DNA of 47,382 nt, taken from IMG/VR virus record IMGVR_UViG_2684623189_000004. One strand, 5' to 3'. Below, in pieces: positions 35,075 through 37,485 of the stretch. Under the pieces are notes generated by a model. It ran no database searches. It was not told where the DNA came from and saw only the letters and a list, made by a program, of their open reading frames with translations. Each line of letters opens with the position of its first letter. Position 1 is the stretch's first letter. Made by a program: the position numbers and the translations under genes. Origin of the DNA: a virus. Lineage: Duplodnaviria; Heunggongvirae; Uroviricota; Caudoviricetes.

Positions 35075-36195
35075 AGCCTGCTTCTCCTTGCCTTTCGGCA
35101 CGTAAGAGGCTAACCTAGATTTGCCGTTCATAGATTGAGCCTCAGATTAATGTTAAGCGTCTTGCAGGACGCGTAATATTAACTGGGGCTTTTCTCTATC
35201 TGCCTTTGGTGTTCATGCCTGAGGCAGATAGCCTCAAGCACCCGCAGCAATTCTACTTAACTCCCGTCACCTCGCCAATATAAAATCAATCAGAAAGGCG
35301 ATCCATAAGAACAACAGCAAGACAATAAATTGCCATTACAGCCGCAATAGCTAGCGCACATTTGAGAACCAGCACGACAACCTCCTGTATTGGACGTACA
35401 CCAGTTCTGATAAATATGAGGCTGTCTCATCATTGATTCAATATAACTATTGGGTATAGTTTCTGTGATTTTGTTCTGTAGAAATGGAACACAACAACCA
35501 GTCACCACCAGCACTTCTTTAAATACGCCAAGTCCGACGCAAGCTAACCTTCTAGTCCGCTTTGAGCGATCTGCAGACATTGCTAGCAGCCTTCTGTGTG
35601 AATTCTCAGGGAGCAGGTCGGCATAGCATCACGTTGAGGCTCTTACCCTACTTGTTGACACCAACCCTAACTCCACAGACTGATTCATAAATTAGTAATC
35701 TGCGTGTTTCGCACTTTTCAGAAATGCTTTCATATTTTCATTAGGTCGCTCAATTTCGAAGTTACTTCCATATAACTCTTGTAATTTTGGCCATAACTTA
35801 CTTAATAACCCTCTCCTGCGATAAAATGGATGTATCCAAACGGTAGATAGGTACGGAGAATTTGCATTTGAATTGTTTATTGTGACCAGCCCAACTAAAC
35901 ATTGTCGATAACCACTATTATCCATTGATTGTATTTCTTCGACGAATGGATACGCGATTACATCAGTCCAACCATGATCGGTTGTATCCCATTGCATTCC
36001 GTCATGACATTCCTTCGACTGATAGCGGCGTAAAGCTACACACGCGAGCTTTTGCCAATCTGGAGAATTAATTGTGATCTCTTCATCGTATGACGCGCCT
36101 ATTGGAGCGGGTATTGGTCTGATTAATCCAGCATGGCATTGGTGATGCTGCCAACTTACTGATTTAGTGTATGATGGTGTTTTTGAGGTGCTCCA

Positions 36196-36471
36196 GTGGC
36201 TTCTGTTTCTATCAGCTGTCCCTCCTGTTCAGCTACTGACGGGGTGGTGCGTAACGGCAAAAGCACCGCCGGACATCAGCGCTATCTCTGCTCTCACTGC
36301 CGTAAAACATGGCAACTGCAGTTCACTTACACCGCTTCTCAACCCGGTACGTACCAGAAAATCATTGATATGGCCATGAATGGCGTTGGATGCCGGGCAA
36401 CAGCCCGCATTATGGGCGTTGGCCTCAACACGATTTTACGTCACTTAAAAAACTCAGGCCGCAGTCGGTAA
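36196..36471 (+). CDS. insA: IS1 InsA
   Basis: 91 aa [40 protein letters not shown]. Confidence 0.9.
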
Positions 36472-36893
36472 CCTCGCGCATACAGCCGGGCAGTGATGTG
36501 ATTGTCTGCGCTGAAATGGACGAACAGTGGGGCTATGTCGGGGCTAAATCGCGCCAGCGCTGGCTGTTTTACGCGTATGACAGGCTCCGGAAGACGGTTG
36601 TTGCGCACGTATTCGGTGAACGCACTATGGCGACGCTGGGGCGTCTTATGAGCCTGCTGTCACCCTTTGACGTGGTGATATGGATGACGGATGGCTGGCC
36701 GCTGTATGAATCCCGCCTGAAGGGAAAGCTGCACGTAATCAGCAAGCGATATACGCAGCGAATTGAGCGGCATAACCTGAATCTGAGGCAGCACCTGGCA
36801 CGGCTGGGACGGAAGTCGCTGTCGTTCTCAAAATCGGTGGAGCTGCATGACAAAGTCATCGGGCATTATCTGAACATAAAACACTATCAATAA
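36390..36893 (+). CDS. insB: IS1 InsB reading frame (expressed as InsAB' by -1 frameshift at TTAAAAAACTC)
   Basis: 167-aa frame overlapping insA 3' end; A6C slippery run at about 36446..36456. Confidence 0.85.
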
Positions 36894-37485
36894 GTTGGAG
36901 TCATTACCCATGGCATTCATCATAGAACTTCATGTTTCCCTCAGAAACGTTGTGTACGTTGGGTTGCTCCATGTGTGCGCCATTCAAAAATAGCTCTGAT
37001 AGTAGTGTATCTACACTGTAATCTTTATTGATTATTGTCGGCTTAGAGTTTTTCTTATTAAGGCCGCGAGTAACGATTTTTTGATCAATGTTAACAACAT
37101 GGAATAATCCGTCGGGGAGGCTAGCGAACCACGATGGGGCATCGGACCAGAATAGCATGCCTTTTGTACTTCTTAAGAGTTTAATTAAGTTAATACAAGC
37201 TTCTTCACTAGTCTTGCCGTTGATGCGAAGTATGTTAGGACTAAAGTAATATTCATCCATATCAGGGAATGCAGCTTCGCAAAACTCCTGTACATAATTT
37301 AGCACCTGGATTCTACAGAGATCATCATAGCTGGTAATAACTAAGGGGGTATCTTCATTACTATTATGATTATCAATAATGCAATCTATAGCGAGACTTA
37401 CTGCTTTGCGTATCACTTCAGTTGAATCTAACGACTCTAAAAATTTTGTCTTTCGTGTGCGAATATCCATGTATGACCTGCGCTA

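Follow-up and report, generated by a model that had tools for sequence, protein, structure and literature searches.

An IS1 insertion with a 9-bp target duplication interrupts an accessory gene of a lambdoid Escherichia coli prophage

In a 47,382-bp stretch of prophage DNA (hereafter, the window), an intact IS1 element flanked by a perfect 9-bp target-site duplication divides a single 333-codon gene, which we refer to as gene B, at its codon 188. We interpret this arrangement as a simple and recent IS1 transposition into gene B that generated the 9-bp duplication, knocked the gene out and is now mostly a matter of neutral decay; the probability of this reading is, in our estimate, about 97%. 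The kind of insertion is already known and represents standard, textbook IS1 insertional inactivation. Gene B lies immediately downstream of an intact partner, gene A. The features concerned are as follows (coordinates of the window).

The IS1 element and its duplicated target

35692..36140, minus strand: 3' fragment of gene B, residues 188-333, with the predicted GNAT-fold domain
36132..36140, no strand: left copy of the 9-bp target-site duplication, CATGGCATT
36141..36908, plus strand: intact IS1 of the IS1A-like isoform, 768 bp
36141..36163, plus strand: IRL of IS1, GGTGATGCTGCCAACTTACTGAT, overlapping a promoter-like site at 36148..36175
36196..36471, plus strand: insA, 91 aa, zinc-finger/HTH repressor (from the ORF list; NCBIfam IS1_IS1595_Zn)
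36390..36893, plus strand: insB' reading frame (from the ORF list), joined to insA by a -1 frameshift to give the 232-aa InsAB' transposase
36447..36453, plus strand: A6C site AAAAAAC for the -1 ribosomal frameshift (direct reading of the sequence)
36886..36908, plus strand: IRR of IS1, reverse complement GGTAATGACTCCAACTTATTGAT
36904..37470, minus strand: 5' fragment of gene B, native residues 1-187 (predicted P-loop-like alpha/beta domain), followed by Gly and a stop
36909..36917, no strand: right copy of the 9-bp target-site duplication, CATGGCATT
37486..38508, minus strand: gene A, the intact upstream partner, with a predicted HEPN/RES N-terminal domain and a RiboL-PSP-type HEPN domain containing RNHLVH

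IS1 is defined by a length of ~ 768 bp and imperfect terminal inverted repeats of ~ 23-30 bp (PMC12428005); the same source describes the 768-bp element with IRL and IRR, insA/insB, the A6C motif with its role in frameshifting, and a duplication of 8 or 9 bp. The element in the window begins with GGTGATGCTGCCAACTTACTGAT and ends with ATCAATAAGTTGGAGTCATTACC, and 18 of the 23 positions of IRL agree with the reverse-complemented right end. The insA and insB' frames are both open. InsA scored 41 bits against NCBIfam IS1_IS1595_Zn (cut-off 28), and InsAB', joined in silico, scored 243 bits against NF033558 transpos_IS1 (cut-off 100) over profile positions 1-199 of 199; NF033558 ('IS1 family transposase') is an equivalog model. 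PF03400 DDE_Tnp_IS1 is recorded for the 167-aa IS1 product. As far as can be judged from sequence, all testable defining features of IS1 are present in this copy, and no sequence defect was found in it.

The complete 768 bp show 100% identity with copies in UTI89, NU14, IHE3034 and many further genomes and plasmids, and in the three named strains these identical copies carry the PGAP label 'IS1-like element IS1A family transposase'. Compared with K-12 IS1A, 762 of 768 nucleotides are the same (99.2%); the six substitutions are accompanied by neither indels nor stops, and two of them change amino acids (InsA H53Y and InsB S65R). The K-12 IS1A/IS1E 'consensus' and the resident IS1 of UTI89 resemble the window copy in length, inverted repeats, insA/insB', A6C motif and 9-bp duplication, and substitutions alone set the window copy apart from K-12 IS1A. 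It is the only IS1 in the window.

The original prediction stated that identical 9-bp copies flank a 768-bp IS1, and both this statement and its coordinates proved to be right: exactly 768 bp separate the two copies of CATGGCATT. The plus strand of the window contains no further copy, and one reverse-complement copy is located at 29316. The chance that an identical 9-mer would abut both ends of IS1 is 4^-9 (~ 4e-6).

Removal of IS1 and one copy had also been predicted to restore a continuous reading frame. Joining 35692..36140 to 36918..37470 gives a stop-free minus-strand ORF of 1002 nt (333 codons) that reads ...KFYDECHAGLIRP... across the insertion junction and ...CHDGMQWDTT... at an internal Met, the junction residues being the same as those quoted earlier. 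The fusion of the two ORFs therefore stands and can be refined in one point: the 3' half spans 35692..36140, of which the ORF 35692..35997 covers the portion beginning at internal Met233.

In the disrupted allele, the 5' ORF encodes 188 aa, and both the completion of its Gly codon and its TAA stop come from the IS1 IRR in the minus-strand reading. The only start codon of the 3' fragment is internal Met233, at 35997, and a poorly spaced AAGGAA is located ~ 14 nt upstream of the resulting 101-aa ORF. Gene B is thus truncated after residue 187, and the translation start of the GNAT part is lost; by analogy with classical IS1 behaviour, the function of gene B would be lost as well. Re-expression of the 3' fragment from an outward IS1 promoter was considered and found to be unsupported, as the sole promoter-like site in IS1 (36148..36175, plus strand) points inward, away from the fragment.

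Empty site, age and spread of the insertion

These data raise the question of whether the two ORFs are indeed parts of one gene or are distinct genes between which IS1 merely came to lie, the restored frame being a coincidence, as could be supposed from the ORF finder output, which lists 36904..37470 and 35692..35997 apart. A comparison with relatives lacking IS1 at this site had been proposed as a check, and it was run. The 3' flank was found in 208 of 5,426 complete E. coli genomes, and a 200-bp query spanning the reconstructed empty site matched all 208 carriers over its full length with at least 99% identity, the site being uninterrupted and containing a single CATGGCATT, as in UTI89 and ATCC 11775. 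A 200-bp query over the IS1/left-flank junction gave no match at a query coverage of 80% or more in the 5,426 genomes. When the window was aligned with ATCC 11775 by BLAST, two alignments overlapping by exactly 9 bp were obtained. RefSeq annotates the locus in ATCC 11775 as one 333-aa CDS (WP_000354966.1), with which the rebuilt gene is identical at 1002 of 1002 nt.

Gene B homologues beyond E. coli (66, mostly 327-347 aa) occur as single proteins of ~ 330 aa in Enterobacterales, Aeromonas, Shewanella, Marinomonas, Idiomarina and others. In an alignment of 33 full-length homologues, conservation runs across the break point: E185 and R192, on its two sides, are invariant, and P193-I-P-A-P197 varies little or not at all. 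Because homologues of this length across Gammaproteobacteria are conserved at the break point, the two ORFs represent the two parts of a single gene, and AF2 yields one confident two-domain model for it (pLDDT 87.9). The existence of two separate genes in relatives, the outcome named at the outset as contradicting the original prediction, is excluded by the single CDS and by the homologues conserved through the break. Together, the empty site in the carriers, the single CDS, the nucleotide identity and the homologue conservation refute the notion of two distinct genes, to which we assign practically no probability. In annotation, the two ORFs should become one IS-disrupted pseudogene.

After removal of IS1 and one repeat, the remaining 46,605 bp of the window equal positions 1388571..1435175 of the UTI89 chromosome (NC_007946.1) except for one SNP, and UTI89 was used as the best comparator. 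The sole difference is located at window position 17471 (A here, G in UTI89), inside the gene for a head-tail joining protein (17254..17607). IS1 is able to delete or invert neighbouring DNA, and this general capacity could suggest that the present copy is the scar of a larger IS1-mediated rearrangement, such as a composite transposon, an inversion or a deletion next to the element. Such an origin is extremely improbable: the flanks are collinear with UTI89 and ATCC 11775 over 46.6 kb with 0 bases missing or inverted, the duplication is intact, whereas rearrangements destroy duplications, and the window contains a single IS1. The full collinearity with UTI89 refutes it.

The insertion had been called recent, and the data bear this out: the duplication is perfect, the gene halves contain 0 substitutions, IS1 is identical to the UTI89 copies, and only 1 SNP per 46.6 kb separates the window from UTI89. 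The clock rate of ExPEC is a few 1e-7 per site per year. With this rate and the single SNP, the split from the line of UTI89 can be roughly placed between decades and a few centuries ago, and the insertion would be no older.

Another important question is whether the allele exists outside this record or could be an artifact of assembly in which a repeat-collapsed IS1 was misplaced at the locus. IS1 is multicopy in E. coli (a median of 11 places per genome), and such repeats mislead short-read assemblers. A misplaced repeat, however, would not yield a perfect 9-bp duplication of a unique target, and the same junctions are present in independent assemblies, namely, two contigs of ~ 5.06 Mb and several short-read contigs. 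One of the long contigs (L003, ~ 5.06 Mb, GCA_037080195.1) matches window positions 33904..40470 at 100% over 6,567 bp, with IS1 and both repeats included. Of the short-read contigs, L005 stops precisely at the first base of IS1, and L007 and L008 stop 29 nt into IRR; contig ends at or just inside IS1 are the signature of a true IS boundary. We therefore regard a misassembly as having a negligible chance of being the correct explanation.

The allele was located through its exact 188-aa product, which is unique to this insertion. This truncated protein was found with its exact sequence in 95 index blocks of a public assembly collection and on 56 contigs, and in one source it carries the label 'ExPCM12_03662 [Escherichia coli]'; the intact gene B protein is present on at least 1000 contigs. 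Together with the contigs described above, these counts show that the insertion is genuine and fixed in a minor clone, and it is neither an assembly error nor a private mutation. The recent date stands, with the qualification that the allele is not confined to one isolate and is carried on 56 contigs of a small clone. Within UTI89-like ExPEC, a clonal sub-lineage can be recognized cleanly by the junction or by the unique 188-aa product.

Prophage context and effects of the insertion

Judged by the prophages of ATCC 11775 and UTI89, which are collinear with it and annotated in RefSeq, the window represents a lambdoid prophage. Its plus strand carries the genes for integrase, excisionase and exonuclease together with dicB and ydfABC. 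The order on the minus strand is a cro-like gene, ydaT, a gene for a 356-aa protein, DUF977, gene A, gene B and hokD/sok, followed by DUF968, rusA, the Q antiterminator gene, a DNA methyltransferase gene, three tRNAs and the lysis, head and tail genes. Gene B is located between the replication genes and hokD / Q antiterminator; by this gene order, IS1 precedes Q within the rightward delayed-early operon, and insAB' is oriented antisense to that operon.

The proposed course of events is as follows. In an extraintestinal E. coli resembling UTI89 (ST95-type), a resident IS1 copy, transposition-competent as far as its sequence indicates, would have moved to another site of the same genome, codon 188 of the 333-codon accessory gene WP_000354966.1. 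The transposase would have made its usual staggered 9-bp cut, and repair would have duplicated CATGGCATT. In the knocked-out gene, the 5' part would encode the N-terminal P-loop-like domain alone, and the GNAT domain would be without a translation start. Judging from classical IS1 behaviour, Rho-dependent polarity on the downstream minus-strand prophage genes is likely; antitermination by the prophage could suppress it. In the simplest view, a dispensable cargo gene of the prophage would be decaying neutrally or almost so.

Classical precedents are the polar IS1 insertions in gal and lac and the IS insertions in the early operons of phage lambda. The present case resembles the classical polar IS1 insertions in that one IS lies in the coding sequence of an operon and the product is truncated, with polarity expected by analogy; it differs from them in its target, which is an uncharacterised prophage cargo gene rather than gal, lac or a lambda early operon. 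IS1 is said in older literature to prefer AT-rich targets, and the composition of the target agrees with the insertion account: the GC content of the A+B cassette (35692..38508, with IS1 at 36141..36917 excluded) is 37.9%, versus 52% in the rest of the window.

Could the insertion instead have been selected? The knockout of gene B, or the damping of the delayed-early operon by IS1 polarity, might have benefited the host through relief from a costly or toxic component of a conflict system or through crippled prophage induction, and this would explain the clonal spread. The allele is common to many isolates (the 95 index blocks and 56 contigs mentioned above), gene B belongs to a HEPN-containing cassette, a kind that is usually conflict-related, and gene B has been damaged independently elsewhere in E. 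coli. In NZ_OZ261667.1 (L002 2663..3653), it is a frameshifted pseudogene with the PGAP label 'GNAT family N-acetyltransferase'; P0194 is a 294-aa frameshift variant from other E. coli; and P0028 is a 320-aa in-frame deletion fusion of a DnaC-like N-terminus (GKPGTGKNHLAAA) with gene B residues 133-333. However, the gene is intact on the large number of contigs given above and in 208 of 208 complete carrier genomes, clonal hitch-hiking accounts for the spread equally well, and a few pseudogene alleles are the normal background for prophage cargo. We therefore consider selection an unlikely explanation and retain that of a simple insertion followed by mostly neutral decay.

Several further features of the prophage were recorded. 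The hokD type I toxin ORF (minus strand, 34919..35131, or 34919..35074 as annotated) is located directly downstream of the disrupted gene B, and IS1 polarity is therefore possible there; the sok antitoxin gives an Rfam match at 35069..35243 (minus strand, 113 bits). The antisense sRNA DicF (42795..42846, plus strand, Rfam 76.7 bits) lies within a Qin-like dicB / ydfABCD block, which extends from ~ 41.9 to 43.4 kb in the window according to collinearity with ATCC 11775 and UTI89. The three prophage tRNA genes (30299..30548, minus strand), downstream of Q and the methyltransferase gene, are Arg-tct, Arg-tcg and one with a CAT anticodon, which is assigned to Met by ARAGORN versus Ile (lysidine type) by RefSeq. 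Two copies of the sRNA STnc100 were detected on the minus strand (29546..29755 and 30033..30223; 161 and 136 bits).

In both the window and UTI89, the rrrQ-type lysozyme ORF (27386..27919, minus strand; 177 aa) is intact, and the annotation of ATCC 11775 shows it with a frameshift, which is among the few differences between these prophage copies. The region of the tail-fibre and tail-fibre-assembly genes contains diverged direct repeats with 87-90% identity (236..451 versus 1286..1500 and 3156..3499 versus 3288..3632), a truncated second tail-fibre-assembly remnant and a cargo gene for a class I SAM-dependent methyltransferase (612..1280). An IS009 sRNA match (1378..1576, minus strand, 224 bits) lies inside the tail-fibre assembly gene region.

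Gene B, gene A and the cassette they form

Gene B is predicted to encode a P-loop-like N-terminal domain and a C-terminal GNAT domain. The N-terminal domain, which is the part kept in the truncated product, reached a pLDDT of 85.9 when modelled alone, and the C-terminal domain exhibits the GNAT fold. The window protein scored 19.9 bits against PF00583 Acetyltransf_1 (gathering score 20.7), and 13 of 33 homologues matched this family at E<=0.01 (best 6e-6). The segment that aligns with acetyl-CoA motif A (Q/R-x-x-G-x-G/A) is HPFYRRRGLLS, a putative counterpart judged by its alignment, in which R292 is invariant; the G, found in E. coli and in the consensus of the family, is not invariant, and the last position is L/K/M, not G/A. 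The RNA cytidine acetyltransferases TmcA / NAT10 also combine a GNAT domain with a P-loop/helicase-like domain and may serve as a structural lead only for gene B.

Public assemblies call gene A with 340 aa, and PGAP, starting at 38448, gives it 320 aa; gene B follows it on the coding strand after 15 nt. In the 31 homologues compared, whose pairwise identity to the query goes down to 26%, R278-N-H-L-V-H283 is invariant, as are R284 and G286; the C-terminal helical domain of gene A thus contains the conserved Rx4-6H motif by which HEPN domains are recognized. The window protein scored 22.1 bits against HEPN_RES_NTD1 (cut-off 27.4) and did not match HEPN_RiboL-PSP, while HEPN_RES_NTD1 (PF18870) was found in 31 of 31 homologues and HEPN_RiboL-PSP (PF18735) in 12 of 31 (best 1e-9).

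Searches of collections gave little for either gene. In PADLOC-DB v2.0.0, gene B had no match and gene A had chance-level matches only (E>=0.012); NCBIfam contained no match for either gene; and in PHROGs, the cassette proteins matched only the 'unknown function' families 16994 and 17908. Gene B was not found in the INPHARED phage collection, even with blastn words of 11, and is known solely from prophages and other integrated elements. The cassette was not found in the literature on WP_000354966, on RiboL-PSP with HEPN or on HEPN + GNAT prophage abortive infection.

The A+B pair is also present in Aeromonas caviae (L012 3972..5993, L013 and L014), with 85% and 79% aa identity and the same 15-nt spacing, on a relaxase-bearing element adjoining SIR2 and cREC-REC genes. 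The presence of the same pair in both settings, a lambdoid prophage and a mobilisable island, indicates that the cassette moves from one to the other. Homologues of gene A with 56-71% identity lack a neighbouring gene B, and gene B homologues also occur without gene A. A role of gene B as the obligatory antitoxin of the HEPN protein was considered and is unlikely, because each gene is found solo elsewhere and the IS1 clone keeps the HEPN gene intact while its GNAT partner is destroyed.

The cassette resembles HEPN-MNT toxin-antitoxin and Abi-type HEPN modules in the invariant Rx4H and the HEPN/RES N-terminal domain of gene A, and it is further like HEPN conflict modules in being AT-rich and mobile, with SIR2/cREC neighbours in Aeromonas. 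In contrast to HEPN-MNT pairs, in which the partner is an MNT nucleotidyltransferase, the partner in the window cassette is a P-loop-like + GNAT protein; the cassette also differs from known HEPN modules in having no significant PADLOC match and in that A and B also occur apart. In our reading, it is loosely coupled conflict-type cargo with a dispensable GNAT member.

Tentatively, and with a probability that we put below one half, gene A and gene B could together be an undescribed module, phage-defence or toxin-like, that travels as a unit of AT-rich cargo. If so, nature would already have provided, in the IS1 allele, a knockout of the GNAT partner, this partner would be dispensable for viability with the HEPN gene intact, and gene B would act as a sensor, modifier or effector rather than as an essential antitoxin. 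The IS1 insertion itself matters little; the cassette is the mildly interesting part, and the IS1 allele offers a natural knockout of its GNAT half.
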